From contig PDQZ01000008.1 in the NCBI GenBank assembly GCA_002747955.1, positions 5,983 through 69,982 of the forward strand: 64,000 nucleotides of DNA. Direction: 5' to 3'. Below, piece by piece: positions 1-64,000 of the stretch (position 1 is its first letter; each line of letters begins with the position of its first letter). The position numbers were made by a program, and so were the translations under genes. Under the pieces are notes generated by a model. That model had not been told where the DNA came from and searched no databases. It saw only the letters and a program-made list of their open reading frames with translations. This DNA is from Candidatus Campbellbacteria bacterium (GTDB taxonomy: Bacteria; Patescibacteriota; Minisyncoccia; Phycocordibacterales; GCA-2747955).

Positions 1-1857
1 AATAACTGGGATTTTTACAAAAACTTTGATGGAGAACTTGTGTTTAAAAAAGATAAAATTAACACTCAAAGTTCTTTGTTTAAAAGTAATTTAGATATTT
101 CAATGTCTGATAAGAACAACTGGCTTGAAGTTGAAACAGAAATCTTTATTGGAAAAGAAAAATATAATATTGATTTTTTAGAAAAGTTTTTAGAAAGTAA
201 AGATGACTTTTTTTACAAAGAAAATGGAGAAAGGGTGGAAGTTAAAAATAAAGAAGAACTTCAAAAATTTATATATATTTTAAAAACTTTTAGAATTAAA
301 AATACAGGAAAAACTCAAATTTCAAAAAACAATGCTTTTGTGTTGAATGAATTTTTCAAACAAGATCAGACTTACAGTGTTTCAAAAAATAAAATTTTCA
401 AAAATTTTATAAATGATTTGAAAAATAAAAAGAATTTTGAAAATATTAAAATTGATAAAAGATACGAAGATATTTTAAGAGAATATCAAAAAAAGGGGGT
501 TGAGTGGATTTTGTTTTTAAAACACTATGGTTTTTCTGGAATTTTAGCAGATGATATGGGGCTTGGTAAAACTTTGCAAGTTTTGGCGGTTTTGGATATG
601 TATAAAGTAAAAAACAAACCTTCTTTGGTGGTTTGTCCAAAAACTTTAATTCAAAACTGGAAAGATGAAATCCAAAAATATGCTCCAAACTTAAAATATA
701 TAGATGTAACGGGTGACCAACAAGAAAGAAAAAAACAAATTAAAAGTTTAAAAAAATATGATGTGGTTTTAACTTCGTATTCACTTTTACAAAAAGATAT
801 TGAGCTTTATAATCAAGAAGATTTTGATTTTAATTATTTGATTTTAGATGAAGCACAGTATATTAAAAACTTTAGAACTAAAAATGCAAAAGTGGTTAAA
901 AATATTGATGCCGATTACAAGCTAGCGCTGTCAGGAACTCCTGTTGAAAATAATTTAACAGAACTTTGGTCTTTGTTTGATTTTTTAATGCCGGGGTTTT
1001 TAGGAAGTATAAAAGATTTTGAAAATGCTTTTGTAAATTCAAAAGAAAGTGAAAAGCTTAATTTTTTACGAAAGAAAATTTCACCTTTTATTTTAAGGCG
1101 AGAAAAAACACAGGTTTTGAAACAGTTGCCTTCAAAAACGGTTCAAAATATGTATGTTCAAAATACAGATGATCAAAATGTTTTGTATCAAGAGATTTTA
1201 AAGTCAACTAAAAAAGAGATTTTTGAAAAAATTAACAAGGATGGTTTTGGGAAATCGTATTTACATATTCTGTCGGCTTTAACAAAGTTAAGACAGGTTT
1301 GTAACCATCCAAATTTAGTTTTGAAAGAAAAAGATTTTAGAAAGTTTTCTTCTGCTAAACTTGATTTGTTTTTGAACTTAACTCAAGAGATTGTTTCTGA
1401 GAAAAGAAAGGTTTTGGTTTTTTCACAGTTCACATCAATGCTTGATATACTTTCTGAAAGTTTAGATCAGAAAAAAATTAAATATGAAGTTTTGACTGGA
1501 AAAACAAAAAACAGAAAAGAAGTAATTGAGAATTTTTCAAAAAGCAAAAATACAAATGTATTTTTAATTAGTTTGAAAGTGGGAGGTTTGGGGTTAAATT
1601 TAACCCAGGCTGATACGGTGATTATTTTTGATCCATGGTGGAATATTGCGGTTGAAAAGCAAGCTGAAGATCGAGTGTATAGAATAGGGCAGAAAAACAA
1701 AGTTAATGTTTATAAGCTGATTTCCAAAAATACAGTTGAAGAAAAGATTTTGAAATTGCAAAAGAAAAAATCTTTTTTGTTTGATTCGGTGATGAAAGAA
1801 AGTGGAGACTTTTCAAAGAAGTTAAATATTGATGATATTAAAGATATTTTTGAATAA
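1..1857 (+). CDS. SNF2/RapA-family DNA-dependent ATPase/helicase (5'-partial; frame is open to window start, listed GTG at 40 is probably internal)
   Basis: DEXH-type ATPase motifs LADDMGLGKT and LILDEAQYIKN, LSGTPVENN, C-terminal helicase motifs GGLGLNLTQADTVIIFDPWWNIAVEKQAEDRVYRIGQ. Confidence 0.8.
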   Translation, partial: NNWDFYKNFDGELVFKKDKINTQSSLFKSNLDISMSDKNNWLEVETEIFIGKEKYNIDFLEKFLESKDDFFYKENGERVEVKNKEELQKFIYILKTFRIKNTGKTQISKNNAFVLNEFFKQDQTYSVSKNKIFKNFINDLKNKKNFENIKIDKRYEDILREYQKKGVEWILFLKHYGFSGILADDMGLGKTLQVLAVLDMYKVKNKPSLVVCPKTLIQNWKDEIQKYAPNLKYIDVTGDQQERKKQIKSLKKYDVVLTSYSLLQKDIELYNQEDFDFNYLILDEAQYIKNFRTKNAKVVKNIDADYKLALSGTPVENNLTELWSLFDFLMPGFLGSIKDFENAFVNSKESEKLNFLRKKISPFILRREKTQVLKQLPSKTVQNMYVQNTDDQNVLYQEILKSTKKEIFEKINKDGFGKSYLHILSALTKLRQVCNHPNLVLKEKDFRKFSSAKLDLFLNLTQEIVSEKRKVLVFSQFTSMLDILSESLDQKKIKYEVLTGKTKNRKEVIENFSKSKNTNVFLISLKVGGLGLNLTQADTVIIFDPWWNIAVEKQAEDRVYRIGQKNKVNVYKLISKNTVEEKILKLQKKKSFLFDSVMKESGDFSKKLNIDDIKDIFE

Positions 1858-1862
1858 GGTTT

Positions 1863-1980
1863 TTGGAAAAATAAGATGAATAACGCGGAGACAAATAAAA
1901 AATACCCAAGGTGTATTATTACAGTGAGGGTATTTTTTATACGGTCGACAAAGTTAGTCGCTTATTTTTTAAGTTTTTTC
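1863..1980 (-). repeat. MITE-like intergenic repeat family A, copy A1
   Basis: terminal inverted repeats of AAAAACTTAAAAAAT type, central AT-stem hairpin; near-identical to copy at 40011-40132. Confidence 0.6.
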
Positions 1981-2088
1981 TTCTTTGCTTTTTCTTCAAG
2001 CATAGCCTTTTTAATAGCTAGTCTTTTAGCTGTCTTGTGATTTCTCACAGTTCTTTTTTTGTCTATTCCTGTTGCTCTTTTTGCCATA
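1969..2088 (-). CDS. small basic protein, 39 aa (MAKRATGIDKKRTVRNHKTAKRLAIKKAMLEEKAKKEKT), possible ribosomal or nucleic-acid-binding peptide
   Basis: manually translated ORF below the 60-aa track cutoff; TATAAT box about 13 nt upstream of ATG on minus strand; stop codon lies inside repeat A1. Confidence 0.3.
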
Positions 2089-2131
2089 ATGTCTTATATT
2101 ATAACATTAAAAAATAAAATTGGAAGTTTAA

Positions 2132-2172
2132 AAAAGTCCAAAATTCGCTTCGCAAATTTTGGACTTTTCTAA
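2132..2172. terminator. perfect 12-bp inverted repeat hairpin (AAGTCCAAAATT / AATTTTGGACTT) with T-run
   Basis: seen directly in sequence between small ORF and helicase gene. Confidence 0.4.
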
Positions 2173-2223
2173 AATAACAAATATTACCTTGAATTTTATA
2201 AATTTTATTTTTTCAAATATGAT

Positions 2224-2229
2224 ATAATG
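2224..2229 (+). promoter_or_regulatory. TATAAT -10 box 5 nt upstream of ATG (leaderless-type promoter)
   Basis: gatataatgttttATG; no Shine-Dalgarno sequence. Confidence 0.4.
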
Positions 2230-2234
2230 TTTTT

Positions 2235-6337: not shown

Positions 6338-9205
6338 ATGTCTATGACAAATAATTACAATCATAAAGAAACTGAAGATAAAATCAAAAAAAATTGGCAA
6401 GAAAATCAAGTTTCTCAAAAACTAAAAGAAAAGAACAAAAATGGAGAAAAATTTTATCTTTTAGATATGTTTACATACCCTTCGGCAACAGGTGTTCACA
6501 TGGGTCACGCTTTTGTTGGGTCTGTAACAGATGCACTTTACAGATATAAATCAATGAGAGGGTTTAATACTCTGCACCCTGGTGGGTTTGATTCTTTCGG
6601 TTTGCCTGCTGAAAACTTTGCTGTTCAAACAGGTATTCACCCTAAAACTTCGACTGAAGAAATAATGGAAAATTTTAAAAAGCAGTTTTCAAATGTTGGG
6701 ATTGATTATGAATTTCACGATGGTGTTATAACTTCAAGTCCAGAATATTACAGATGGACCCAATATCTTTTTGGAAAGTTTTTTGAAAACGGACTTGTTT
6801 ATAAAAAAAATACAAAAGCAAACTGGTGTGATTCTTGTAAAACAGTTATTGCAAACGAGCAAGTAGAAGGTGGAGTGTGTGAAAGATGTAAAACACAAAT
6901 TGTTCAAAAAGATATTCCATCTTGGATGTTTAAAATTACAGATTTTGCAGATGAGCTTATAAACGATTTAGACAAAGTTGACTGGCCAGAATCAACAAAG
7001 AAAAATCAAATAAACTGGATTGGAAAATCCGAAGGAGCAGAAATTGATTTTGATGTAGTTGAAAGTGAATATGTAGACATAAACAGAGACGGGGGAAAAG
7101 ACACATACCAGAACGGTGTTGAGGAAATTGAAAGACACAATGTGGTTGTAATTATTGAACACCCAGAAAAAGAAGAATTTTTATGTGTTAAATGGAAAAA
7201 AGTTGACTGGCAGGGATTTGTTACAGGTGGAATTGAAAACGGTGAAAGTGTGAAAGAAACTGCTTTAAAAGAAGTTGTTGAAGAAACAGGTTATCAAAAT
7301 CCAGAAATTGTAAAAGTTTATAACCAGTCTTCACACGGAAAGTTTTATCATGTTGGAAAAAAGGTAAATCGGTTTGCGCATTATAGAGTTGTGCATGTGA
7401 AACTTAAAGACTTAGAGCAAAAGGAAAGATCTCAAGAAGAGCAAGATATTGCAGATATTTTTTGGGTTCCAAAAAATGAGGTAAATGATTTTCTAAAAAG
7501 GGAAGATATGAAATATCCGTGGAGAGTGGTAAATGGGGAAAATGATTTTGGTCAAAAACTAAAAGTTTTTACAACAAGAGCCGATACCATTTTTGGTGCA
7601 ACTTATATGGTTGTGGCTCCTGAGCACAAACCTGTAAAAGAATTTTTAGAAAACGGAAAAATTCGAAATAAAAATGAGGTTCAAGATTATGTCAAAGAAA
7701 CAGAAAAAAAATCAGAACTTCAAAGACTTGAAGCTAAAGAAAAAACAGGGGTAAAACTTGAAGGTATTGAAGCTATAAACCCTGCAACAAAAAAACAAAT
7801 TCCAATTTTTATTTCAGACTATGTTTTGTCATCTTATGGAACAGGAGCAATTATGGCTGTGCCTGCACACGACGAACGAGATAACGAGTTTGCTCAAAAG
7901 TTTGGACTTGAAATTAAAGAAGTTGTAACTTCTGAAAACAAAAAAGAAGATAAAGTTTTCACAGACAAAGGAGTTTTGGTAAATTCAGAACGGTTTGATG
8001 GAAAAACTTCAGATGAAGCTATAGATGAAATTGTTCAATTTGTTGGTGGAAAAAAAGTTTCAAATTATAGATTGAGAGATTGGTCTATTTCTCGACAGAG
8101 ATATTGGGGTTGTCCAATTCCGATTGTTTATGACAAAAACGGTCAGGCAAAATTTGTGGGTGAAGAAAATTTGCCATGGACTCTTCCTGAAGATGTAGAT
8201 TTTGTTCCAGACGGAACAGCACCACTTGCAAAATCAAAAGAATTGAAAGAACGAACCCAAAAACTTTTTGGAGATGGTTTTACACCAGAAGTTGATACAA
8301 TGGATACTTTTGTTGATTCGTCTTGGTATTTCTTGCGATATCCTGATTCTGAAAATCAAGATGAATTTTGTTCAAAAGAAATATTGGAAAAGTTTTTGCC
8401 AGTTGATTTGTATATTGGGGGAGCAGAACACACTTACATGCACTTGCTTTACGCTCGATTCTTCACAAAAGCAATGAAAAAACTTGGACTTTTGAATTTT
8501 GATGAACCGTTTTTAAAACTTCGTCATCAGGGAATGGTTTGCGACGAACATGGAAAGAAAATGTCAAAATCAAAAGGAAATGTAGTAAATCCAGATGATG
8601 CAGTTGAAAGGTTTGGAGCAGATGCTACAAGAACTTATTTGTTGTTTTCATCACCGCTACAAGATGATGTGATCTGGAATGAAGATGGAGTGGTGGGAGC
8701 ATATAGATTTTTGGAAAAAGTTTTCAGACAGAAAAATAAAGTTGTAGATGAAGAGGTTTTGGAGGTTAAAAAAGAGCTTGCCAAGACTGAAAAGAAATTC
8801 ACACAACATATAGAAGATTTGAAGTTTAACACCGCTATTTCATTTTTGATGACATTTATAAACTTTTTGGACAAGCAGGAAAAAATTAATAAAAATGATT
8901 TTGAAGATTTTCTAAAAATGCTTTCTATTTTTGCGCCTTTTGTTTCAGACCAGCTTGCAGAGAAAAACTTGATTTTGGAAAATTGGCCAAAGTTTGATTC
9001 TGAACTTGTAAAAGAAGACAGTATTACAGTTGTGGTTCAGATAAACGGTAAAAAAAGAGCAGAGCTTGAAGTTTCACCTGAAATAAATCAGGATGAAATT
9101 GAAAAACTTGTTTTGGAAAATCAAGATGTTTTAAAATGGACTGAAGGCAAAGAGATTAAAAAAATTATTTATGTTAAAGGAAAGTTAGTTTCGGTTGTGG
9201 TTTAG
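6338..9205 (+). CDS. leuS: leucyl-tRNA synthetase with an inserted Nudix-like domain
   Basis: HIGH motif (HMGHAF), KMSKS motif, zinc knuckle CDSC...CERC, editing-domain VFTTRADTIFGATY; about 160-aa insert (aa 245-405) carrying Nudix box GGIENGESVKETALKEVVEETGY. Confidence 0.95.
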   Translation: MSMTNNYNHKETEDKIKKNWQENQVSQKLKEKNKNGEKFYLLDMFTYPSATGVHMGHAFVGSVTDALYRYKSMRGFNTLHPGGFDSFGLPAENFAVQTGIHPKTSTEEIMENFKKQFSNVGIDYEFHDGVITSSPEYYRWTQYLFGKFFENGLVYKKNTKANWCDSCKTVIANEQVEGGVCERCKTQIVQKDIPSWMFKITDFADELINDLDKVDWPESTKKNQINWIGKSEGAEIDFDVVESEYVDINRDGGKDTYQNGVEEIERHNVVVIIEHPEKEEFLCVKWKKVDWQGFVTGGIENGESVKETALKEVVEETGYQNPEIVKVYNQSSHGKFYHVGKKVNRFAHYRVVHVKLKDLEQKERSQEEQDIADIFWVPKNEVNDFLKREDMKYPWRVVNGENDFGQKLKVFTTRADTIFGATYMVVAPEHKPVKEFLENGKIRNKNEVQDYVKETEKKSELQRLEAKEKTGVKLEGIEAINPATKKQIPIFISDYVLSSYGTGAIMAVPAHDERDNEFAQKFGLEIKEVVTSENKKEDKVFTDKGVLVNSERFDGKTSDEAIDEIVQFVGGKKVSNYRLRDWSISRQRYWGCPIPIVYDKNGQAKFVGEENLPWTLPEDVDFVPDGTAPLAKSKELKERTQKLFGDGFTPEVDTMDTFVDSSWYFLRYPDSENQDEFCSKEILEKFLPVDLYIGGAEHTYMHLLYARFFTKAMKKLGLLNFDEPFLKLRHQGMVCDEHGKKMSKSKGNVVNPDDAVERFGADATRTYLLFSSPLQDDVIWNEDGVVGAYRFLEKVFRQKNKVVDEEVLEVKKELAKTEKKFTQHIEDLKFNTAISFLMTFINFLDKQEKINKNDFEDFLKMLSIFAPFVSDQLAEKNLILENWPKFDSELVKEDSITVVVQINGKKRAELEVSPEINQDEIEKLVLENQDVLKWTEGKEIKKIIYVKGKLVSVVV

Positions 9206-9308: not shown

Positions 9309-9349
9309 TCAAGTATTTATTTATTTTTATTTTTTGTTAAAATATATGT

Positions 9350-9697
9350 ATGAAAAAATATTACTTAATTTTAATTTCTTTTTTGCTGCCGTACCTTGTT
9401 TATGCACAAGGGGGTGGTGTTGGGATCAAATCACCCTTTACACAAGAAGTTGGTAGCCTGGTTGATTTATTAAAAATAATTATAAAAGGAGTGACTTATG
9501 TTTCAATTCCAATTTTGGTTTTGGCATTTATCTATTCAGGTTTCATGTTTATTAAAGCCCAGGGGGATACAAATGAATTGGGTCGAGCAAAAAAGATTTT
9601 AATTACAACTGTTGTGGCGGCAATGTTAATTTTAGGATCAAATGTAATTCTAACTATGATTTCAGATACAGCTGATGCAATTTTGACAACTTCTTAA
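9350..9697 (+). CDS. small secreted two-TM protein, TrbC/VirB2-pilin-like fold
   Basis: signal peptide MKKYYLILISFLLPYLVYA then two hydrophobic helices; homologous to C-terminus of 47269-48426 product (shared YSGF/YTGF-x-FI-A-G-AKK pattern). Confidence 0.55.
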   Translation: MKKYYLILISFLLPYLVYAQGGGVGIKSPFTQEVGSLVDLLKIIIKGVTYVSIPILVLAFIYSGFMFIKAQGDTNELGRAKKILITTVVAAMLILGSNVILTMISDTADAILTTS

Positions 9698-12226: not shown

Positions 12227-12452
12227 AAAACTTTAAAAATGAGATACCTAACGCGGAAGCAAGCAAAAAACCCCGAGCCTTATTTGATATAAGATGAGGG
12301 GATTTTGTAACAAACAGGTTTTAATTGTATTTAGTAAAATTTTAAAAATTGGATGAAGCGCGAGGCGTCGAGTAAAAAAATTTGGATACGTATGTTTTAT
12401 TACGTTGAGAAATTTTTTTATGAAGACAACGAAGCGATTCGCCATTTTTAAA
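12227..12452 (-). repeat. MITE-like repeat family A, copies A3a (half) + A3b (inverted partner of A2)
   Basis: 12336-12452 is reverse complement of 10420-10545. Confidence 0.7.
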
Positions 12453-19428: not shown

Positions 19429-19604
19429 ATTATATTATTATGTATATAATTATATATTTAAAATTTAAAAAACACAAATTTTGATTTATCCTTTTTAGCT
19501 ATTGCATTATTCAATTTATTTATATATAATAAATACATCAAGCCTTAATAGAACTTGATTTTATTGAGTATTGATAATTTTTTAAAAATTTAAAAATAAA
19601 AATT

Positions 19605-19877
19605 ATGAATAAAGGACAATTAGTAGAATTTATCGCTGATAAAGTTGGATCAACAAAAGCAGATGCAGAAAGAATGCTTGAAGCATTCATGGAAGCAGTT
19701 ACAGAAACACTTAAAAAAGAAGATTCGGTAGCATTAACAGGTTTTGGAGCATTCTCTATTTCACATAGAAAAGCAAGAACTGCAAGAAACCCAAAAACAG
19801 GAGCAGAAGTAAAAGTTCCAGCAACAAAAGCACCTAAATTCAAAGCAGGTAAAAAACTAAAAGAGGCTGTTAAATAA
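19605..19877 (+). CDS. hup: DNA-binding protein HU
   Basis: MNKGQLVEFIADK...GFGAFSISHRKARTARNPKTGAEVKVPA. Confidence 0.9.
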   Translation: MNKGQLVEFIADKVGSTKADAERMLEAFMEAVTETLKKEDSVALTGFGAFSISHRKARTARNPKTGAEVKVPATKAPKFKAGKKLKEAVK

Positions 19878-19892: not shown

Positions 19893-19980
19893 AAAACCAA
19901 AATTTCGTGAAAGCGTTATTTTGGTTTTTTAAATATTTTGTTAAAAATGCCCGCAGCCTTCGGCTGCGGGCATTTTTTTC
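19893..19980 (+). terminator. tandem terminator hairpins after hup (AACCAAAAT...ATTTTGGTT; GCCCGCAGCC-TTCG-GGCTGCGGGC + T-run)
   Basis: seen in sequence. Confidence 0.55.
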
Positions 19981-20001
19981 TTTTTATGATAAAATATATT
20001 T

Positions 20002-21417
20002 ATGAAAATTTATAACACTTTAACCAAAACCAAACAAGAGTTTGAGCCAGTTGAAAAAAACAAAGTTTTGTTTTACCAGTGTGGTCCAACTGTTTACTGG
20101 AACCAGCACATTGGAAACTTGCGTTCAGTTGTTTTGGCTGACTTTATAAACAGAACTTTTAAGTATTTAGGATACGAAGTTTTGTTTGCACGAAATTACA
20201 CAGATGTGGGACACCTAAGTGGGGACAATGAAGGTAATGCCGATACGGGTGAAGACAGAATGGAAAAAGCTTCAAAAAGAGAAAACTTGAATCCAGAAGA
20301 AATTGCTCAAAAATATATCCAAACTTACAACAAAGATGTAAGTTTATTAAACACAATAGAGCCAACTTTTAAACCAAAAGCAACAGAATACATAGAAGAA
20401 CAAAAAGAAATGATAAATATTTTGTTTCAAAAAGGTTTTGCTTATGTTACAAAACTTGGAATTTATTTTGATGTTTCAAAAGCCGAAAACTATCACAGAC
20501 TTTCTGGACAAAAAACAGATTTTAACATTTGCGGGGCAGGAGCCGGAGATGTCACAGATTCTGAAAAGAAAAACAAAGAAGATTTTGCTTTATGGTTTTT
20601 CAAAACAGGAGCGCACAAAAACGCTTTGCAAACTTGGCAGTTTAAAGAATTTAATAATTATTTTGAAAACGGGCAAGGCTTCCCAGGCTGGCATTTAGAG
20701 TGTTCTGCAATGGCTTGGAAACTTTTGGGAGATACTATTGATATTAAAATGGGAGGAATTGAACACATTCCAATTCACCATACAAATGAAATTGCACAAT
20801 CTGAAAATACAACTGGTAAAAATTATGCAAATTTTTATTTACACAACGAGCACCTTTTGGTTGACGGAAAGAAAATGTCAAAATCAGAAGGAACATCATA
20901 TTTGCTTTCAGATATTATTGACAAGGGTTATTCACCACTTGATTTAAGGTTTTTGTTTTTACAAGCGCATTACAGATCAAAACAAAACTTCACTTGGGAC
21001 TCACTTGAAGCTTCAAAAAAAGCATTTGATAAAATCAAAAACAAACTTGGACAAATTGAAAGTGTTGGAAAAATAAATTCTGAATTCCAGAAAAAGTTTT
21101 TAGAAAAAATCGAAGATGACTTTAACACACCCGAAGCACTTGCTGTTTTACACGAAGTTTTAAAATCAGATATTCCAGACCAAGACAAAAAAGCCACAAT
21201 TTTAGATTTTGATAAAATTTTTGGTTTAAAACTTTCAGAAGTCCAAAAAGAAAAAGAAGAAGAAATGCCTCAAGAAGTTGCTCAGATTTTAGAACAAAGA
21301 AAACAAGCCCGTGAAGAAAAAAACTGGCAAAAGTCAGATGAACTCAGAGACAAACTTGCAGAACTTGGATACATTGTTAAAGACGGTCCTGACGGACAAA
21401 CAGTGACTAAAAAATAA
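20002..21417 (+). CDS. cysS: cysteinyl-tRNA synthetase
   Basis: YQCGPTVYWNQHIGN, GWHLECSAM, KMSKSEG. Confidence 0.9.
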   Translation: MKIYNTLTKTKQEFEPVEKNKVLFYQCGPTVYWNQHIGNLRSVVLADFINRTFKYLGYEVLFARNYTDVGHLSGDNEGNADTGEDRMEKASKRENLNPEEIAQKYIQTYNKDVSLLNTIEPTFKPKATEYIEEQKEMINILFQKGFAYVTKLGIYFDVSKAENYHRLSGQKTDFNICGAGAGDVTDSEKKNKEDFALWFFKTGAHKNALQTWQFKEFNNYFENGQGFPGWHLECSAMAWKLLGDTIDIKMGGIEHIPIHHTNEIAQSENTTGKNYANFYLHNEHLLVDGKKMSKSEGTSYLLSDIIDKGYSPLDLRFLFLQAHYRSKQNFTWDSLEASKKAFDKIKNKLGQIESVGKINSEFQKKFLEKIEDDFNTPEALAVLHEVLKSDIPDQDKKATILDFDKIFGLKLSEVQKEKEEEMPQEVAQILEQRKQAREEKNWQKSDELRDKLAELGYIVKDGPDGQTVTKK

Positions 21418-21798: not shown

Positions 21799-23106
21799 AT
21801 GTTTGATTTAAAAGTTATAAACTCAGTTCTAGAAGAACTGCAAGAAACAAAAAATATTTCAAAAGATGAAGTAATTGACGCTATTGAGGAAACGCTAGCA
21901 GCCGCATACAAAAAACAATACGGAGAAAGAGGGCAGGTTGTAAAAGCAAAACTAAACATGGATACAGGAAATGTTGATTTTTTCAGAATCAAAGAAGTAG
22001 TTTCAGACAACGAAGTTATTCCAGAAGATGAGCTTGAAAAAATGGACAAAGAACAATATTTAGCAGAAAAAGAAAAAGGAAGAACAAAGTTCATTGACCA
22101 AAAACACATTATGCTTGATTCTGCAAAAATGATCAAAGCCGATGCCAAAGTTGGAGATGAAATCGTTTTTGATTTGGAAAACAAAACAGATTTTGGACGT
22201 GTAGCAGCAATGGCTGCAAAACAAACAATCCGACAAAAAATCAGACAAGCTGAAATGGGACATATTCAAGAAGAATTTGGAGATAAAGAATTTGAAATTG
22301 TTCAAGGAGAAGTTTTGAAACAAGAAGGAGGTTTTGTTTATGTTGATTTAGGAAAAGCCGAAGCTGTAATGCCAGCCTCAGAGCAGTTACCAAAAGAAAA
22401 ATACAAAACAGGAGACAAAATCAAAGCTCTGCTTTTGAAACAAAAAAACAGAGATGAAGGAAAACTAAGTTTAATGGTTTCAAGAACTCACCCTGAATTT
22501 TTAAGAAAACTTTTTGAAATCGAAATTCCAGAATTAAAAGAAGGAATTGTTGAAATCAAAAAAATCGTTCGTGATCCAGGATTTAGAGCAAAAGTTGCAG
22601 TTGTCTCACACGACGAAGATCTTGATGCAGTTGGAACTTTTATCGGACAAGGTGGTTCAAGAGTTATGGCAGTTTCAAACGAGCTTTCAGGAGAAAGAAT
22701 TGACCTTGTTGAATATTCAGAAGACGAAGTTGAGTACGCTAAAAACGCAATGATGCCAGCTGAAATTGAAAGCGTGGAACTTGAAGGTGACGACAAAGTG
22801 ATTGTAAATGTTTTATCTGAAAACTTCACAAGCACAATTGGACGAAATGGACAAAATGTAAAGCTTGCTTCAAGGCTTTTATCAAAAAGAATTGATGTTC
22901 TAAAAATCGATCAAGATCAAGAAAGCCAAGACAAAGAAGAAGAGCCAAAAAAAGAACTTGAAAATGAAGTTGAAGAAACAAAAACAGAAGATGAGGTAAA
23001 AGAAGAAAAAGAAGTTGTTGAAACAACAGAAGAAAAGAAAGATAAAGAAGAACCAAAAGAAAATCAAGAACAAGACAAAGAGGAGAAAACAAAAACAGAA
23101 GAATAA
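21799..23106 (+). CDS. nusA: transcription termination/antitermination factor NusA with acidic C-terminal tail
   Basis: NusA N-domain, S1 and KH regions (GRNGQNVKLASRLL). Confidence 0.9.
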   Translation: MFDLKVINSVLEELQETKNISKDEVIDAIEETLAAAYKKQYGERGQVVKAKLNMDTGNVDFFRIKEVVSDNEVIPEDELEKMDKEQYLAEKEKGRTKFIDQKHIMLDSAKMIKADAKVGDEIVFDLENKTDFGRVAAMAAKQTIRQKIRQAEMGHIQEEFGDKEFEIVQGEVLKQEGGFVYVDLGKAEAVMPASEQLPKEKYKTGDKIKALLLKQKNRDEGKLSLMVSRTHPEFLRKLFEIEIPELKEGIVEIKKIVRDPGFRAKVAVVSHDEDLDAVGTFIGQGGSRVMAVSNELSGERIDLVEYSEDEVEYAKNAMMPAEIESVELEGDDKVIVNVLSENFTSTIGRNGQNVKLASRLLSKRIDVLKIDQDQESQDKEEEPKKELENEVEETKTEDEVKEEKEVVETTEEKKDKEEPKENQEQDKEEKTKTEE

Positions 23107-27860: not shown

Positions 27861-27865
27861 TCTTG

Positions 27866-27937
27866 TCCTCCAACCAGGAATCGAACCTGAATCTAGCCCT
27901 TAGGAGGGGCTTGTTCTATCCATTGAACTATTAGAGG
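27866..27937 (-). tRNA. tRNA-Arg (anticodon CCT)
   Basis: manual fold: 7-bp acceptor, D-stem GTTC/GAAC, anticodon stem AGCCC/GGGCT loop CTCCTAA, T-arm CAGGTTCGATTCCTG; CCA not encoded. Confidence 0.8.
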
Positions 27938-32008: not shown

Positions 32009-32059
32009 AAAATAAATATAATCTATTTATTTTTTATTTTTTTCTGTTAAAATAGATAC

Positions 32060-32628: not shown

Positions 32629-33120
32629 TTATTTATCTAATAAAGAGTAAAGAATGATCCCTGTGGTTACAGAAACATTTAAAGAGTTTTTAAAACCTTT
32701 CATGGGAAGTTCTAAAATCTGGTCTGCATTTTCCAAAACTTTTTTGCCCACTCCAAAATTTTCATTTCCCATTATAATGACATTTTTGTTTGAAAGTTTT
32801 GCTTTTTTGTAATCCACAGAGTTTTTGTCCTGTTCCACAGCCAAAATATTAAATCCTTCTTTTTTTAATTCCAAAACAAGTTCCAAAATATCTTTTCTAT
32901 ATTCCCAAGGTGTTTTTGCTCCCAAGGATGTTTTTTGAAAATCTTTTCTGATTCTTCCAAATCGATCTTCTGGAGTGGGGCAGTATCCACACAAAAAGAT
33001 TTTATTAACTCCAATAGCGTCTGCTGTTCTGAAAATTGCTCCGACATTTAAAACAGATCGAACAGAGTCTAAAACCAAATAGTTTGTTTCGTTTTTTTCT
33101 TTTTTCTCCTTTTTTATCAT
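32629..33120 (-). CDS. SpoU/TrmH-family RNA 2'-O-methyltransferase (TrmL-like, 163 aa)
   Basis: SPOUT motifs VGAIFRTADAIG, IMGNENFG, LNVSVTTGIILY. Confidence 0.8.
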   Translation of the reverse strand: MIKKEKKEKNETNYLVLDSVRSVLNVGAIFRTADAIGVNKIFLCGYCPTPEDRFGRIRKDFQKTSLGAKTPWEYRKDILELVLELKKEGFNILAVEQDKNSVDYKKAKLSNKNVIIMGNENFGVGKKVLENADQILELPMKGFKNSLNVSVTTGIILYSLLDK

Positions 33121-33163
33121 TTATATATTTTACTATAAAATTAAAAAAAGTTATAATTAAAAT

Positions 33164-34033
33164 ATGAATAATGAAGAAAAAGTAAAACTTCAAAAAGAAA
33201 TTGAAAAACTAGAACAGTTAACTTATAGCCTCAATTTTTGGAAAGACCCTCAAAAAGCTCAAGAGATTTTAGAAGAAATCAAAAAGCTAAATATTTTAAA
33301 AGAAGGTGGGGAAGAAAATGACTTAAAATCTTGTGTTATAAGTATTTTTGCTGGAACCGGTGGAGATGATGCAGAAGATTTTGTAAGAATTTTGTTTCAG
33401 ATGTATTTTAAATTTTGTGAAAAAAACAATTTTGAAATTCAGATTTTATCTCAAAGCCCAAATGAACAAAAAGGTTATAAAAATATTTCTTTTGAAATTT
33501 TAAATAAAGGAAGTTACGGTCTTTTTAAAAATGAAAACGGTGTTCACAGGCTTGTGAGAAAGTCGCCTTTTAACGCAAAGTCAAAAAGGCAAACTTCATT
33601 TGCTAAAGTTGAGGTTTTGCCAAATATTGAACAAAAAGATTTTCAGATCAACGAAAGTGATTTTGAAATTTCATTTGCTAAATCACAAGGTTCGGGTGGG
33701 CAAAACGTAAACAAAAGAGAAACGGCAGTTCGGATTGTTGACAAAAAAAGTGGAATTTCAGTTTTTGTTTCAGAAGGTAGAACTCAAGAGTATAACAAAA
33801 AAAGAGCTTTTGATTTGATTCGTGCTAAACTTTATTTAAAACACAAAGAAGACCAAGAAAAAATCAAACAAGGTTTAAAGGTCAATGACAAAGTTGAAAT
33901 TTCGTGGGGAAGTCAAATGAGAAATTATATTTTTGATCCATATAAAATGATCAAGGACACAAAGCAAAATATTGAAATTACAAATATTCAAAAAGTTTTA
34001 AATGGAGATTTGTCTGATTTTATTAAGTTGTAA
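33164..34033 (+). CDS. prfB: peptide chain release factor 2 (short N-terminus, no programmed frameshift site)
   Basis: SPF tripeptide (RKSPFNAKS) and GGQ motif (GSGGQNVNK). Confidence 0.85.
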   Translation: MNNEEKVKLQKEIEKLEQLTYSLNFWKDPQKAQEILEEIKKLNILKEGGEENDLKSCVISIFAGTGGDDAEDFVRILFQMYFKFCEKNNFEIQILSQSPNEQKGYKNISFEILNKGSYGLFKNENGVHRLVRKSPFNAKSKRQTSFAKVEVLPNIEQKDFQINESDFEISFAKSQGSGGQNVNKRETAVRIVDKKSGISVFVSEGRTQEYNKKRAFDLIRAKLYLKHKEDQEKIKQGLKVNDKVEISWGSQMRNYIFDPYKMIKDTKQNIEITNIQKVLNGDLSDFIKL

Positions 34034-40012: not shown

Positions 40013-40132
40013 AACTTAAAAAATTGGCGACTCACTTTGTCGACCGCATAAAAAATTCCTTCACCATATATTAAATATGGCTCAGGAATTTTTTATTTGT
40101 CTCCTCGTGATTCATCCAATTTTTTAAGTTTT
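40011..40132 (+). repeat. MITE-like repeat family A, copy A6; perfect 17-bp TIRs AAAACTTAAAAAATTGG/CCAATTTTTTAAGTTTT; starts on lysS stop codon
   Basis: seen in sequence. Confidence 0.7.
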
Positions 40133-40149
40133 ATGATATAAGGATTGAA

Positions 40150-40767: not shown

Positions 40768-40856
40768 GGAGAAGTGGCTGAGTGGTCGAAAGCGCGTCCC
40801 TGCTAAGGACGTGTCCGGGTTAAACTGGACCGGAGGTTCGAATCCTCTCTTCTCCG
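40768..40856 (+). tRNA. tRNA-Ser (anticodon GCT), type II with long variable arm, discriminator G
   Basis: GGAGAAG acceptor, anticodon stem CGTCC/GGACG loop CTGCTAA, T-arm AGGTTCGAATCCT. Confidence 0.8.
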
Positions 40857-41125
40857 CCGAGCACAAAAACCCAAAGCGACAGCTTTGGGTTTTTCCGTGC
40901 TCCGGCCGGAGAAGAGAGGATTCGAAAAGAGCGCAGCCCTGTTTTTTCTCTGCGTGGCTGCGTCCGAGAAAAAACGGCAAGCGGCGGGCCCGCGAGTTCT
41001 TAACGAACGACGAACGCAGTGAGGAAGTAAAACCCAAAGCGACAGCTTTGGGTTTTTCCGTGCTCCGGCCGGAGAAGAGAGGATTCGAAAAAAGCGGACT
41101 TTTCAAAAGTCCGCTTTGGTTTTAA
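40857..41125. repeat. tRNA-Ser 3'-end-derived inverted and direct repeats (two about 75-bp copies) plus segment shared with 57960-58030
   Basis: GGAGAAGAGAGGATTCGAA (revcomp of tRNA T-arm/acceptor) at 40895 and 41059; AAAACCCAAAGCGACAGCTTTGGGTTTTT hairpin twice. Confidence 0.6.
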
Positions 41126-49804: not shown

Positions 49805-49857
49805 ATGTTAAAAAATTAAAACTTCCACACTTATTTTTTATATGTTAAAATATTTAC

Positions 49858-50376
49858 ATGACAAAAAAAGAAATAAAATCAAAATTTGAAGGAAAAAAAG
49901 CAAAAGCTTTTTGTTTAAAAAATCAAAACGAAGAAAAAATTTGTTTAAAAGATTTCCAAAAAGGTGGAGAATTTGGAGGTAAAGAAGGAAAAAAAGTTTT
50001 ACTTTACTTTTACCCAAAAGACTTAACTTCAGGGTGCACAATCGAATCAGTTTCATTTACCAAAATGAAAAAGAATTTCCAAAATCAAAACACAGTTATT
50101 TTAGGAATTTCAAAAGACTCTATTGAACTTCACAAAAAATTTATTAAAAAAGAAAAACTTAAAAATGACCTTCTTTCAGACGAAGAACACAAAGTTTTAG
50201 AAAAATACGGTGTTTGGCAAGAAAAATCAATGTTCGGAAAAAAGTATATGGGAGTATCAAGAGAATCATTTTTGATTGATGAAAACGGAAAAGTTTTAAA
50301 ACATTTCCAAACAGTAAAACCAAAAACTCACGCACAAGAAGTTCTAGATTTTTTAAAAGCTTTAAAAAAGAAATAA
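49858..50376 (+). CDS. bcp: peroxiredoxin Bcp/PrxQ-type thiol peroxidase
   Basis: LLYFYPKDLTSGCTIE. Confidence 0.8.
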   Translation: MTKKEIKSKFEGKKAKAFCLKNQNEEKICLKDFQKGGEFGGKEGKKVLLYFYPKDLTSGCTIESVSFTKMKKNFQNQNTVILGISKDSIELHKKFIKKEKLKNDLLSDEEHKVLEKYGVWQEKSMFGKKYMGVSRESFLIDENGKVLKHFQTVKPKTHAQEVLDFLKALKKK

Positions 50377-53679: not shown

Positions 53680-55170
53680 AATTATAAGAGTTTGATCCTA
53701 GCTCAGGATGAATGCTGGCTGTGTGGATAAGGCATGCAAGTCGAATGCATTTAGTTGCATGGCGGACGAGGTAGTAACACGTAGGACTACGTACCCCAAA
53801 GTCAGGGATAACCCATCGAAAGGTGGGATAATACTTGATATCTCTTCGGAGGAAAGATTTATCGCTTTGGGAACGGCCTGCGGAGTATCAGCTAGTTGGT
53901 AAGGTAATGGCTTACCAAGGCTACGACGCTTAGGGGAGGTGAGAGCCTGACCCCCACCGATGGGACTGAGACACGGCCCATACTCCTACGGGAGGCCGCA
54001 GTCGAGAATCTTCCACAATGGACGAAAGTCTGATGGAGCGACACAGCGTGATGGATGAAGTTCATAAGAATGTAAACATCTTTTATATGTGAAAAAGTTT
54101 ATTGATATTAACATATGAATAAGGGGTTGCTAACTACGTGCCAGCAGCAGCGGTAATACGTAGGCCCCGAGCATTATCCGGAATCATTGGGCGTAAAGGG
54201 TCCGTAGGCGGTTTAATTAGTCTTTCGTTAAAGCACCAGGCTCAACCTGGGACAGGCGAAGGAAACGGTTAAACTAGAATCAAAAAGAGGTGTGTGGAAC
54301 TCATAGTGTAGGGGTGAAATCCGTTGATATTATGGGGAACACCAAAAGCGAAGGCAACACACTGGTTTTGTATTGACGCTGAGGGACGAAACCCTGGGTA
54401 GCGAATGGGATTAGATACCCCAGTAGTCCAGGGCCTAAACGATGCATACTAGCTTTTTAAATTTCAATCATTTAAGAGGCGAAGCTAACGCGTTAAGTAT
54501 GCCGCCTGGGGAGTACGGTCGCAAGGCTAAAACTCAAAGGAATAGACGGGGACTCGCACAAGTAGTGGATCATGTGGCTTAATTCGTAGGTACACGAAGA
54601 ACCTTACCCAGATTAGATATTATATTCATGCTACACATTGGAGACAAATAGTAGATATTGTGGTATAACAGGTGTTGCATGGCCGTCGTCAGTTCGTGGC
54701 TTGAGCTGTTCCTTTAAGTAGGGAAACGAACGCAACCCTCATCGTTTGTTATAAGTGTCAAACGAGACTGCCTCGCCTTAAGTTTTTAAATAAAATTTTG
54801 AAGATTTAAGGCGGGGAGGAAGGTGGGGATGACGCCAGGTCAGCATGACCCTTGATGTCTGGGGCTGCACACGTGATACAATGGGCAGGACAACAAGACG
54901 CAATACGGCAACGTGGAGCAAATCTTTCAAACCTGTCCTAAGTTCGGATCGGGGGCTGAAACTCGACCCCGTGAAGTTGGAATTACTAGTAATCGCAGGT
55001 CAGCTATACTGCGGTGAATATGTTCTCGAGTCTTGTACTCACCGCCCGTCAAGTCAAGGGAGTTGGGAGTACCCAAAGTTCGTGTTTATCACGACCTAAG
55101 GTAAGCTCAGTAACAGGGACTAAGTCGTAACAAGGCACGGCTAGCGGAAGCTGGTCGTGGATTATTTCAA
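53680..55170 (+). rRNA. rrs: 16S ribosomal RNA, complete, not followed by tRNA or 23S within 500 nt
   Basis: AGAGTTTGATCCTAGCTCAG 5' end; GTGCCAGCAGCAGCGGTAATAC; GGATTAGATACCC; ...AAGTCGTAACAAGG...GGATTATTTC 3' end lacking CCTCC. Confidence 0.95.
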
Positions 55171-55344
55171 AGAAGATGGTCATAAATGACTTTATTGGTT
55201 GAAACAATTCTATAATTGTTAGACTTTCATCTGGAGTCTTTAAATCAGATGCGCTTATAGTAAGATATGCGACACTTCTAATTAGTCGGGGCACAAGAAA
55301 GATTTTTTTCTATAACCAATCACTAAATTACAATATTTTATTTC

Positions 55345-55480
55345 AAAAAACTGCAGAAATTGGCGAAAATCTTTGTCAATTTTATAAAAAAAAACTCTCA
55401 CCGTATATTTAATACGGCTCGAGATTTTTTTTATTCATTTCCTCGATTCTCATCCAATTTCTGCTGTTTTTTAACTTTTT
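55345..55480 (+). repeat. MITE-like repeat family A, copy A7 (TIRs AAAACTGCAGAAATTGG / CCAATTTCTGCTGTTTT with compensatory change)
   Basis: seen in sequence. Confidence 0.6.
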
Positions 55481-56454: not shown

Positions 56455-57025
56455 GTGAAAAACCACCAGCTTTAGCTGGTGTGTGCGTTTAAAAACGTAG
56501 TTAGTATAATTTCCGCAAGGAAAGTGTTTTAACAATTAATATAATCTAAAATGAATCAAAGACTATATCACTTAAATCATAGCACATGGATTTGTGATTA
56601 CCACATTGTTTGGTGTCCAAAATACAGAGGAAATGTGTTGGAAGACAAGTATATTAAAAATCAATTAAAAACAATGTTTAAAAATATTGTAAAGTGGAAA
56701 GGTTTAATTATTCACGCTTGGCACATTGGTGATAATCATATACATTTATACATATCAATCCCGCCAAAATATTCAACTGCATACACAATACAAATTTTGA
56801 AAGGAAAAACTTCAGCATGGATAAAAAAGAAAACAAAAAAATTTCCAAGGGGAACTTTATGGCAAAGAGGATATTTTGTATCAACAATTGGTTTAAACAA
56901 ACACCAAATTAAAAACTACATTAACGATCAATCTCACCACCAAATAGAACTGACTCAGAAAAAGTTATTCTAGCCCACAACGTGGGCAAGATAAAAGCGA
57001 CCAGCGTTTAGCTGGTCGTTTTTAC
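56455..57025 (+). mobile_element. IS200-type insertion sequence (tnpA only) with subterminal hairpins
   Basis: left hairpin CACCAGCTTTAGCTGGTG (56457-56480), right hairpin GACCAGCGTTTAGCTGGTC (57000-57021) flanking tnpA. Confidence 0.7.
56551..56973 (+). CDS. tnpA: IS200/IS605-family Y1 (HUH) transposase TnpA
   Basis: HUH motif HIGDNHIHLYISIPPKYS and catalytic Tyr region LWQRGYFVSTIG; 140 aa. Confidence 0.85.
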   Translation: MNQRLYHLNHSTWICDYHIVWCPKYRGNVLEDKYIKNQLKTMFKNIVKWKGLIIHAWHIGDNHIHLYISIPPKYSTAYTIQILKGKTSAWIKKKTKKFPRGTLWQRGYFVSTIGLNKHQIKNYINDQSHHQIELTQKKLF

Positions 57026-57067
57026 TTTTTTAAATGCCAAAAGATTTTTTTATGTTAAAATATATTT

Positions 57068-57790
57068 ATGAAAAAAGAAATAATAAAAAAAGATATAACA
57101 TTTAAAATGAAAGATAAAGGTGAGATTTATGCTGATTTTTATTCTTCAAAAAGTAAAAAATGTATTGTTATAATACACGGACTTTTTGGAAATTCATCTG
57201 AACACCAGTTTTATAATTCAGCAAGGTTTTTTGCCAAAAAAGGTTACGATGTTTACGCTTTAAACATGTATACAATGGGAAAAAGGCAGATTGATAAAAA
57301 TAGTATAACTCAACAAGTAAAAGATTTAGAGGAAATTTATGAAAAAGTAAAAAGAAAATATCAGAAAATATTTTTAATAGGTCATTCAATCGGTGGACCA
57401 ATTATCTATTTATCAAAAGTGGCCCAACAAGAAAACAAAGTTCAAGCTTGTGCTTTGTGGGAACCAACCATAAATCCAGTTGGAGTTGAAAAAGATTTTA
57501 AGTTTAAAAAAGGAATAAACGCTTACTATACTTTTGGTTTTTTAGTTTCTAAAAAAATGGTTTCTGATTTGAAAAAATTAACTTCAGAAAAGATTTCAAA
57601 AATCAAAAAACCTTTTTTGTTGGTTTTAAATACAAAAGGCGGGCTTTATAAAAATTGGAAAAAAGCTTATGAGTTTATTAGAACTGATTATGAAACTTTG
57701 TATTTAAAAAACTCAGGACATAATTTTTCTAAAAATAATCAAGATCAGATTTTGTATAAAGAGACTTTGAAATATTTTAATAAATTTTAA
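57068..57790 (+). CDS. alpha/beta-hydrolase fold protein
   Basis: nucleophile elbow GHSIGG, HGLFGN oxyanion region. Confidence 0.6.
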   Translation: MKKEIIKKDITFKMKDKGEIYADFYSSKSKKCIVIIHGLFGNSSEHQFYNSARFFAKKGYDVYALNMYTMGKRQIDKNSITQQVKDLEEIYEKVKRKYQKIFLIGHSIGGPIIYLSKVAQQENKVQACALWEPTINPVGVEKDFKFKKGINAYYTFGFLVSKKMVSDLKKLTSEKISKIKKPFLLVLNTKGGLYKNWKKAYEFIRTDYETLYLKNSGHNFSKNNQDQILYKETLKYFNKF

Positions 57791-58045: not shown

Positions 58046-58180
58046 GTAAAAAATAATACAAAATAATTCCTGCGCACTGCTCGGAATGTATTTTGTTTAT
58101 TTTTACACAAAAAACACCTGAACTTGATTGTACTGTTACAAAACAAAAACTTAACTTCGGTTAAAAAGTTAAGTTGCTTG

Positions 58181-58262
58181 TACCCGAAAGAGGGCTCGAA
58201 CCTCCATGGATTGCTCCACTGGTTCCTAAGACCAGCGCGTCTACCAATTCCGCCATTCGGGC
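58181..58262 (-). tRNA. tRNA-Leu (anticodon TAG), type II
   Basis: acceptor GCCCGAA/TTCGGGT, D-loop AATTGGTAGA, anticodon stem CTGGT/ACCAG loop CTTAGGA, long variable arm, T-arm GAGGTTCGAGCCCTC. Confidence 0.8.
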
Positions 58263-58337: not shown

Positions 58338-59279
58338 ATGGCATCGTTAAAAACATTGAAAGGAAAAATGGCTGGGATCAAAAAAACAGCCAAAGTAACA
58401 AAAGCAATGGAATCAATTTCTGCAATCAAAATGCGATCAGCACAAAAAAAAGCAATCGCATCAAGAGAATATTCTTTCCGAGTTTTTTCAATTGTAAAAA
58501 GAGTTTCAAAACTTTTTTTGCATGATAATGTAGATTTATTTTTCAAACAAAAATTAGACAACTTACACCCAACTGTAATTTTACTGATATCTCCTGACAA
58601 AGGTTTAACAGGGGGAATGAACAATTTTCTATTTAAAAAAGTAGACGAAGTTATCAAAGACCAAGAATTTACAAAAGAGAATTTATCTTTTGTTTGTGTA
58701 GGTAAAAAAGGTTACGAGTATGTTTCTAAAAAAGGTTTTGAAGTGATCAAATATTTTGATTTGATTGCCGAAAAATCAACAACAGAAGAAATCAAAGAAG
58801 TTTCAGAATACATGCAGTCTTTATATGCTGAAAACAAGTGTGCCCGAATAAAAGTAATTTATACAACTTTTATCAACACCTCTGAACAAACTCCAAAAGT
58901 AAGAAGAATTTTACCCATCAACTACAAAGATACAAAAAAGTTTATCAAAGAAATTTTACCAGACAAAGGAAAGTTTTCAGATATTGAACACAACATCGAT
59001 ATTGATCACTCAGATGTTGGATCATACTTGTTTGAACCGGACATTAAAGATGCGGTGAAAACTTTAACTGAGTATGTAATGCACATCGGAGTATACCACT
59101 CAATTTTAGAAGCTTTTGCTTCAGAACATTCAGCCAGAATGTTGGCAATGAAAAACTCAACAGATAAGGCCGATGAGCTTTCAGAAAATATCAGAAAGAA
59201 AGTAAACAAAGAAAGACAAGCTCAAATTACAAAAGAAATTTCAGAAATTGTTTCTGGAATTGAGTCAATGAAAAAATAA
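58338..59279 (+). CDS. atpG: F-ATPase gamma subunit
   Basis: MASLKTLKGKMAGIKKTAKVTKAMESISAIKMRSAQ N-terminus and helical C-terminus typical of gamma. Confidence 0.8.
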   Translation: MASLKTLKGKMAGIKKTAKVTKAMESISAIKMRSAQKKAIASREYSFRVFSIVKRVSKLFLHDNVDLFFKQKLDNLHPTVILLISPDKGLTGGMNNFLFKKVDEVIKDQEFTKENLSFVCVGKKGYEYVSKKGFEVIKYFDLIAEKSTTEEIKEVSEYMQSLYAENKCARIKVIYTTFINTSEQTPKVRRILPINYKDTKKFIKEILPDKGKFSDIEHNIDIDHSDVGSYLFEPDIKDAVKTLTEYVMHIGVYHSILEAFASEHSARMLAMKNSTDKADELSENIRKKVNKERQAQITKEISEIVSGIESMKK

Positions 59280-62621: not shown

Positions 62622-62630
62622 TAAAATATT

Positions 62631-63185: not shown

Positions 63186-63191
63186 AATATT

Positions 63192-63440
63192 ATGAAAAAA
63201 GATATACACCCAGAAAATAGAGAAATTGTTTTTGTTGATAAAGAAGCAAACTATGTTTTAAAAGCATTGTCTACTTTAAAAACAGAAGATACTTACGAAT
63301 TTGAAGGAAAAGAATATCCAGCAGTTTTTGTTGAAATTTCTTCAGCATCACACCCTTTCTATACAGGAAATACAAAAACTCTTGATACTGCAGGGAGAGT
63401 TGATAAGTTTAAGAAACGATTCGAAAAGGCAAAGAGCTAA
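63192..63440 (+). CDS. rpmE: 50S ribosomal protein L31 (non-zinc type) at the position normally held by S14
   Basis: [14 protein letters not shown]...[24 protein letters not shown]. Confidence 0.8.
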
Positions 63441-63563
63441 AAATTTGAAAAATGAGCAGTCAACTTCGTTAGAGGTACAAAAAATCCCCTCACCGTATAT
63501 CAAATACGACTCGGGGATTTTTGTTTGCTTCCTCGTTATCCATCTTGTTTTTCAAGTTTTTTT
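63438..63563 (+). repeat. MITE-like repeat family A, copy A8; begins on rpmE stop codon
   Basis: AAAAATTTGAAAAATGAG ... CATCTTGTTTTTCAAGTTTTT; central AAAAATCCCC...GGGGATTTTT hairpin. Confidence 0.65.
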
Positions 63564-63577
63564 GTGTTTGGGAATTG

Positions 63578-63623
63578 ACGTCGAGCACCATTGTTTTTTT
63601 AAAAAAAACAATGGTGCTCGACA
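63578..63623. repeat. perfect palindrome GTCGAGCACCATTGTTTTTTT/AAAAAAACAATGGTGCTCGAC
   Basis: seen in sequence. Confidence 0.5.
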
Positions 63624-63702
63624 TTAAATTTCTGCCGTTTTTTAAAAACTTGAAAAACACCAAAAAACAAAGGTGTTTTTCTTTTACTCTACAACACAAA
63701 AA

Positions 63703-63748
63703 GCAGAATTTTGGCAAACCACAACCACCCAGCCAAAATTCTGCTTTT
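63703..63748. repeat. hairpin family C copy (stem GCAGAATTTTGG, loop CAAACCACAACCACCCAG)
   Basis: seen in sequence; T-run follows. Confidence 0.55.
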
Positions 63749-63806
63749 TTATAAACCTATATTTTCATATTTTTAATTTTGCCCTAAAGGCCTTTTATAA
63801 GTTATT

Positions 63807-64000
63807 TTACTTAATACTTTTTTTAAGCTCGTCAATTTCTTTTTGAGATAAAACTTTGTACTCTCCAACTTTTAAATTTCCAAGTTTTATGTTCATAAAT
63901 CTCACTCTTTTTAAACCTAAAACTGTATATCCAAGTGCTGCACACATTCTACGAATTTGGTGTTTTTTTCCTTCAGTTAAAATCAAGGAAAAAGTTCGGG
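63807..64000 (-). CDS. RsuA/RluB-family pseudouridine synthase, C-terminal part (5' end beyond window)
   Basis: HQIRRMCAALGYTVLGLKRVRFMNIKLGNLKVGEYKVLSQKEIDELKK. Confidence 0.7.
   Translation of the reverse strand, partial: RTFSLILTEGKKHQIRRMCAALGYTVLGLKRVRFMNIKLGNLKVGEYKVLSQKEIDELKKSIK

Follow-up and report, generated by a model that had tools for sequence, protein, structure and literature searches.

Within the Minisyncoccia/Paceibacteria, the recently reported family JAKLIH01 (order UBA6257) decodes UGA as Trp and lacks release factor 2 (RF2), the product of prfB, through loss (PMC13092985). Relatives of JAKLIH01 that retain RF2 show UGA shares of 3.9–27%, with 3.9–4.6% in the sister family JAVHQB01 (PMC13092985, Suppl. 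Table 2). In the Eggerthellaceae, Tapirivita keeps the standard code with 9% UGA beside recoded sisters (PMC13462651). Here, we describe a 64,000-nucleotide (nt) stretch of DNA from a Candidatus Campbellbacteria bacterium (hereafter the window, meaning the whole stretch analyzed), in which no gene ends in TGA and prfB encodes a short-form RF2. This case is more extreme than the published low-UGA, RF2-retaining kind, and the avoidance is present in all ten close relatives sampled. Our literature search found no paper on UGA avoidance in Paceibacteria or Campbellbacteria, with the nearest data being the supplementary table of PMC13092985.

The JAVHQB01 family resembles the window in belonging to the same class, in carrying RF2, and in using the standard code, with stops of ~72% TAA, 24% TAG, and 4% TGA. 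It differs in that TGA drops here to 0 of 70 gene ends and to ~1% in the ten relatives, including those with 40% guanine–cytosine (GC) content, although the JAVHQB01 figures are whole-genome counts and ours are partial. The use of TAA and TAG as the only stops (75–80/20–25) is shared with code 4 (Mycoplasmatales, JAKLIH01, insect symbionts) and code 25 (Gracilibacteria/Absconditabacteria) lineages, as are the small AT-rich genomes, and both code 25 and JAKLIH01 occur in the same phylum. Unlike these lineages, the window has no in-frame UGA and encodes an intact RF2, and neither it nor 18 related loci yielded a tRNA(UCA). A codon that is (nearly) gone from genes with the decoding machinery still unchanged recalls the codon-disappearance stage of Osawa and Jukes, as well as known cases of codons that go unused, e.g., UGA in the Chlamydomonas plastid and CGG in Mycoplasma capricolum. 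Classical codon capture, however, is modeled on neutral AT pressure, whereas TGA remains abundant here at unselected sites and is not lost genome-wide.

The window has a GC content of 30% and is dense with genes under the standard code. Its RF2 protein is an exact match to NCBI PID83383.1 ('peptide chain release factor 2 [Candidatus Campbellbacteria bacterium]'), which is encoded on a 152,504-bp contig of a metagenome-assembled genome, so that the organism is a Paceibacteria/Parcubacteria-type member of the Patescibacteria (candidate phyla radiation, CPR) under the NCBI label Candidatus Campbellbacteria. The readable DNA of this organism comprises the window and ~5 kb from two overlapping Logan contigs (L001 and L002), which are identical to the window over all stretches compared. 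Genes were curated from a six-frame list of open reading frames (ORFs), scored by a codon model trained on long ORFs, and doubtful ORFs were checked against Pfam, NCBIfam, and the gene calls on the overlapping contigs.

The curated set holds 65 genes whose stop lies inside the window, of which 52 end in TAA, 13 in TAG, and none in TGA. With the RluA-like gene on the minus strand, which ends in TAA at 63807, and four genes just beyond the window on L001 and L002 (all TAA), TGA is found at 0 of 70 gene ends of the organism (66 in the window and 4 on the overlapping contigs; Table 1). The earlier note on this DNA had claimed that none of about 65 genes ends in TGA, which our independent six-frame ORF census bears out (0/66 in the window); its ~75/25 split was right in naming TAA and TAG as the sole stops, while the ratio is nearer 80/20 (TAA ~80%, TAG ~20%). 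Among ORFs of 100 amino acids (aa) or more in the window, just two end in TGA, and both are spurious (Table 1). We also screened TGA-ending ORFs of at least 25 aa in the intergenic gaps, none of which had a positive coding score worth noting. By the rule of three, a count of zero in 65–70 genes sets a ceiling of ~4.5% on the TGA share.

The TGA triplet itself is plentiful in this DNA, with 2,468 occurrences on both strands compared to 937 for TAG, and 187 versus 89 in intergenic DNA. Beyond the true stop, the next in-frame stop triplet is TAA in 45 cases, TGA in 16, and TAG in 4 (n = 65), and the first in-frame stop upstream of starts is TAA in 52, TGA in 8, and TAG in 4 (n = 64; TGA 12.5%). 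Unselected positions therefore carry two- to four-fold more TGA than TAG, yet the true stops comprise 0 TGA and 13 TAG, and the difference between true (0/65) and next-downstream stops (16/65, 25%) is significant (Fisher p = 3.6e-5). Given that TGA is common at unselected positions and absent at true stops, composition alone is insufficient to account for its depletion, which is limited to gene ends and reading frames. UGA is abundant in spacers, shortly past gene ends, and out of frame. The simplest reading is that selection acts against TGA at gene ends. In low-GC orders, other orders of Patescibacteria among them, published medians of the UGA share are 9–17% (PMC13092985, Suppl. Table 4), and the binomial probability of drawing 0 of 64 is 0.0012 at a TGA share of 10%, 0.0048 at 8%, and 0.038 at 5%.

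Relatives were sampled as ~20 kb loci around prfB genes whose RF2 is 52–58% identical to that of the window, with stops counted in ORFs of 100 aa or more that do not overlap. The ten loci (GC 29–40%, each with RF2; Table 1) together contain 128 TAA, 38 TAG, and 2 TGA stops (n = 168), compared to TGA in 47 of 168 next-downstream stops (p = 1e-13). One of the two TGA stops belongs to an uncalled, spurious ORF in L098 and the other is an ATGA stop/start overlap in L093, leaving a single credible TGA stop among 167 genes. TGA depletion is not confined to the window genome and is common to at least ten related lineages. In more distant loci with a short RF2, the depletion is weaker (TGA in 13/121 true stops vs. 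39/119 downstream, p = 4e-5), and the control group, comprising the unrelated bacteria among 80 loci from a metagenome-contig scan with RF2 alignment, showed none at GC contents of up to 0.5 (40/172 vs. 51/172 downstream, not significant). Two loci with a short RF2 use the codon: TGA accounts for 7 of 17 stops in L087, which has 47% GC and the same RF2 type, and ends prfB itself in L007. The short RF2 presumably reads UGA, given these gene ends.

As TGA occurs in none of the 17,988 in-frame codons of the window genes, against 138 TGG and 976 GGN codons, it is not a sense codon, and the suggestion that TGA is avoided in this role too holds. When ORFs were called with TAA and TAG as the sole stops, real genes gained just short 5′ extensions, each holding a TGA at most ~140 nt (for most, at most 60 nt) 5′ of the start. 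Conserved genes, including those for LeuRS, LysRS, CysRS, SerRS, enolase, NusA, and ribosomal proteins, are all intact under the standard code. The marks of the altered codes were sought in the window and none was found, namely UGA at conserved Trp positions (code 4, where it usually outnumbers UGG in AT-rich genomes), UGA at conserved Gly positions (code 25), and loss of prfB (either code). Two features agree instead with translation table 11, an RF2 gene of intact SPF and GGQ motifs and conserved genes free of in-frame UGA; gene ends in UGA, the third feature of that code, number 0 of 70 in this organism, one credible case in 167 genes of relatives, and 7 of 17 in L087. A tRNA(UCA), for which the earlier note proposed to look, is absent both from the window, whose three tRNAs (Arg-CCT, Ser-GCT, and Leu-TAG; Table 1) are unable to read UGA, and from the 18 related loci scanned.

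The prfB gene of the window is a single uninterrupted ORF with a conserved N-terminus at its start. TIGR00020 is the best-scoring model for its product, with profile positions 111–349 of 353 matched, and the SPF and GGQ motifs lie at residues 134–136 and 178–180. We rejected an identity as prfH (RF-H), a type of ~200 aa that lacks domain 1 and has a divergent recognition loop, given a TIGR03072 score of 89.6 bits, below the cut-off of 166.65, where the prfB model scores 296.6 bits, and the presence of SPF; the pairing of RF-H with an RtcB-like gene is also not seen, the neighbors instead being a SpoU methylase and ATP synthase epsilon. Domains 2–4, with SPF and GGQ, are orthologous to those of the autoregulated prfB of E. 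coli and B. subtilis (~365 aa, +1 frameshift at CUU UGA), whereas ~70 residues of domain 1, the frameshift site, and the anti-Shine–Dalgarno (anti-SD) sequence of 16S rRNA are missing here. Autoregulated prfB genes have an in-frame UGA near codon 26 (CUU UGA C) with a Shine–Dalgarno (SD)-like stimulator; in the gene and its 43-nt upstream spacer, we found neither a CTT-TGA site nor an ORF1, and the spacer is too short for an upstream ORF1 or a stimulator of this kind. The short N-terminus is real, because the divergent SpoU-type gene bounds prfB 43 nt upstream.

Residues 37–287 of the RF2 align to residues 107–357 of B. subtilis RF2, and residues 12–42 to 32–62 (solved structures). Compared to the solved structures, ~45–65 residues of domain 1 and ~20 N-terminal residues are absent, while an alignment check of domain integrity, as suggested by the earlier note, finds all of domains 2–4 covered. 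The AlphaFold model (27 homologues; mean predicted local distance difference test, pLDDT, 85.7; predicted template modeling score, pTM, 0.77) renders domain 1 as a two-helix hairpin, and Foldseek matched the model to free RF2 structures (2ihr and 1gqe; template modeling score, TM, 0.72–0.76). Among the 120 best-matching homologues, many of them labeled Patescibacteria, the mean length is 288 aa, the N-terminus is conserved, SPF is present in all 120, and GGQ in 118. The window protein has the traits of the Patescibacteria short form, i.e., a length of 284–292 aa, the N-terminal helix ExxIxxLExEMY...FW, SPF, GGQ, and the SPFN..KRQT loop. The RF2 is under purifying selection, and its shortness is a family trait. 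The earlier note was thus correct that prfB is present, short, and without a +1 frameshift site, but the decay that this seemed to imply is not supported, as a form of ~285 aa is the norm among the homologues and RF2 is equally short in the TGA-using L087 and L007. We have accordingly discarded the short domain 1 and the missing frameshift as signs of decay, both being universal in this RF2 family, and neither feature tracks TGA use.

The recognition loop of the RF2 (residues 134–146, SPFNAKSKRQTSF) carries Gln in place of the canonical His (KRQT vs. RRHT/RRHTSF), as do 116 of the 120 closest homologues. In crystal structures of the RF2–ribosome complex, the canonical His after SPF stacks on the stop codon. 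As a cause of the avoidance, the change was rejected, since Gln-type members (L087, L022, L024, and L063) use TGA and the His-type L098 avoids it. A separate variant was noted in the RF2 of L097 (P0116, 10001–10891), which has GGM instead of the catalytic GGQ; its ATG codon, compared to the relatives' Gln (CAA/CAG), needs two or three base changes. The L097 locus has 0/18 TGA stops and no sign of recoding, and the GGM in P0116 may reflect relaxed RF2 function in this one lineage.

The 3′ end of the 16S rRNA (55145–55172) reads GGAUUAUUUCAAAG (...GGATTATTTCAAAG) where E. coli has GGAUCACCUCCUUA. With the anti-SD missing, a frameshift stimulator lacks its needed partner, which fits the absence of an SD-stimulated frameshift in prfB. 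An SD-like motif was present in just 1 of 53 ATG-start genes (25 nt upstream examined). Many genes carry a conserved TTTTTATGTTAAAATATATTT-ATG module, an extended −10 box that ends 6–7 nt 5′ of the start (e.g., 9327–9358, 19979–20010, 32037–32068, 49835–49866, and 57045–57076), an arrangement suggesting that mRNAs are as a rule leaderless. The 16S gene is solitary, with no 23S or 5S in the next 9 kb, and an IS200-type transposase gene (56551–56973) lies 1.4 kb downstream. Helix 34 of the 16S rRNA (C1054 region) was pursued as a lead to altered UGA decoding and dropped, as C1054 is conserved and the few substitutions are uninterpretable.

We consider it probable that the organism follows the standard bacterial code and that UGA continues to be a stop codon, read by an intact short-form RF2 and strongly disfavoured at real gene ends. 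That TGA stops are merely rare at 30% GC, and that 65 genes lack them by luck, is very unlikely: UGA is indeed as low as 3.9–4.6% in some Minisyncoccia genomes, and a true share of 4–5% would give P(0/64) = 0.04–0.07, but the excess of TGA over TAG at unselected positions against 0 and 13 at true stops (p = 3.6e-5), the equal lack of TGA in relatives of 40% GC (L084 and L089), and the pooled test across relatives (p = 1e-13) all speak against it. We give even less credence to the view that UGA has by now undergone reassignment or ambiguous decoding (code 4 or 25), with sense UGAs elsewhere in the genome. Such a state would match the TAA/TAG-only profile of recoded lineages and has precedents in the same class and phylum; set against it are the zero in-frame TGA beside 138 TGG and 976 GGN codons, the TAA/TAG-only ORF calls that add short 5′ extensions and nothing else, the intact and conserved RF2, and the lack of tRNA(UCA) in the window and the 18 related loci.

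It is improbable, if less so, that UGA is effectively unassigned, i.e., that RF2 in this subclade has lost or weakened its recognition of UGA, reads UAA only, and leaves UGA as neither stop nor sense. The zero or near-zero use of UGA across ten lineages, the Gln for His in the recognition loop of 116 of 120 homologues, and the GGM for GGQ in P0116 are in its favor, but L087 has the same KRQT loop with 7/17 TGA stops, the His-type L098 also avoids TGA, SPF is invariant, and L093 uses TGA in its ATGA start/stop overlap. We rate no higher the prospect that UGA is made leaky, and is thereby driven from gene ends, by a tRNA-Trp(CCA) able to read it, e.g., one whose anticodon stem has 4 bp or whose D-arm is of the Hirsh type. 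Of 19 orders, 13 show a lower UGA share in genomes with only the 4-bp-stem tRNA-Trp, which is present in several Paceibacteria (PMC13092985); however, the published reductions are modest (medians mostly 9–35%), and with no tRNA-Trp gene in the window or any relative locus, this is a candidate cause only. A broader and bolder version, in which the whole Paceibacteria subclade has functionally vacated UGA as both stop and sense and keeps an RF2 of reduced domain 1 mainly for UAA, strikes us as doubtful, although less so than the foregoing alternatives.

Several points weigh against our preferred reading of UGA as a disfavoured but functional stop. A true TGA share of 0% is not separable from one of ~4.5% in a sample of this size, and the relatives are grouped by RF2 similarity instead of a species tree and represented by loci instead of whole genomes. 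The form of RF2 alone does not explain the avoidance, because L087, with the same short RF2 and Gln loop, uses TGA. Finally, that UGA is costly is a step we infer.

If UGA does remain a disfavoured stop, its avoidance may be accounted for by termination at UGA being costly in these cells. UGA is the stop most easily read through by near-cognate tRNA-Trp, the supply of RF2 would lack feedback control (with no frameshift site and no anti-SD to drive one), and an RF2 without most of domain 1 could add to the cost; further possible contributors are a tRNA-Trp that reads UGA and a lack of RF3 or PrmC. TGA stops would thus be swapped for TAA, which both RF1 and RF2 recognize, or for TAG, which RF1 recognizes. 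RF2 would be kept for its share of the UAA load and for ending translation at the many out-of-frame UGAs. With UGA nearly vacated, the loss of RF2 and the capture of UGA by a tRNA would then be cheap.

Table 1. Features of the window with their coordinates, and TGA stop counts in the loci of ten relatives.
Feature	Position	Strand	Details
Stop-codon census	1..64000	both	66 gene ends: 53 TAA, 13 TAG, 0 TGA
Spurious 101-aa ORF, TGA end	19538..19843	−	antisense to HU gene; no Pfam match
HU DNA-binding protein, real gene at this site, TAA end	19605..19877	+	Pfam PF00216, E = 1e-33
Spurious 115-aa ORF, TGA end	22488..22835	−	inside nusA (21799–23106, +)
tRNA-Arg(CCT), unable to read UGA	27865..27937	−	
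SpoU/TrmH-family RNA 2′-O-methyltransferase gene	32629..33120	−	5′ boundary of prfB
AT-rich 43-nt spacer between SpoU-type gene and prfB (divergent)	33121..33163	+	TATAAT at 33152–33157, six bases 5′ of ATG
prfB, short-form RF2, 289 aa, TAA end	33164..34033	+	TIGR00020, E = 2e-88
tRNA-Ser(GCT), unable to read UGA	40768..40858	+	
16S rRNA	53680..55172	+	3′ end without CCUCC anti-Shine–Dalgarno
tRNA-Leu(TAG), unable to read UGA	58180..58262	−	
TGA stops per locus (GC where given)			L003 0/17 (0.29); L084 0/22 (0.40); L085 0/11; L089 0/19 (0.405)
TGA stops per locus			L091 0/11; L092 0/16; L093 1/17; L094 0/15; L097 0/18; L098 1/22

The window also contains a number of features of separate interest. 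An intergenic repeat family has copies at 12265–12307, 36761–36843, 40051–40133, 55388–55471, and 63480–63561, in which a 43-nt hairpin (AAAAATCCCCTCACCGTATATCAAATACGACTCGGGGATTTTT) precedes a conserved T-rich stretch of ~49 nt, with up to 94% identity between copies; these repeats look like terminators. Just downstream of tRNA-Ser(GCT), there are two copies (40866–40933 and 41029–41096; 99% identical) of a GC-rich 68-nt element. Residues ~266–389 of LeuRS (6338–9205, 955 aa) match Nudix/RNA pyrophosphohydrolase models (E ~2e-6), which suggests a Nudix-like domain inserted in this enzyme. A ParB/Spo0J-like protein (28760–31033, 757 aa) joins a normal N-terminal ParB domain of ~240 aa to a low-complexity tail of ~500 aa that is rich in Glu, Lys, Asn, and Gln. 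The ATP synthase delta, epsilon, and gamma genes lie in three separate places (25260–25661, 34165–34401, and 58338–59279), with gamma immediately preceding a ribosomal-protein cluster that extends from S19 to L5, after which come L31 and the cluster end.

The earlier note had proposed that this could be a precursor state of UGA reassignment. Avoidance, the presence of RF2, and the reassignment of UGA within the same class and phylum agree with this, whereas the RF2 is not degenerate; the proposal is made plausible by UGA = Trp in the same class and, as a statement on the future, lies beyond proof. The route through the AT-pressure step of classical codon capture does not apply here, because TGA makes up 25% of the next-downstream stops and outnumbers TAG two to one in intergenic DNA. 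The freeing of a stop codon for reassignment is usually inferred afterwards; here, the depletion is seen in all ten close relatives, each locus with RF2, in a phylum where UGA has been recoded on at least two occasions. If counts over whole genomes bear this out, models in which RF2 is lost first and those in which the codon disappears first would be directly testable, and the factor behind the cost of UGA (tRNA-Trp structure, RF2 form, or the missing prfB feedback) would be identifiable. On a practical note, the code-4-like stop profile could mislead the automatic choice of genetic code in gene calling. Should the doubtful case of a subclade that has wholly vacated UGA prove true, this subclade would be a living example of the intermediate behind the two reassignments of UGA, to Gly and to Trp, that are known in the phylum, and RF2 would already be undergoing relaxation in single lineages such as that of P0116 with its GGM.

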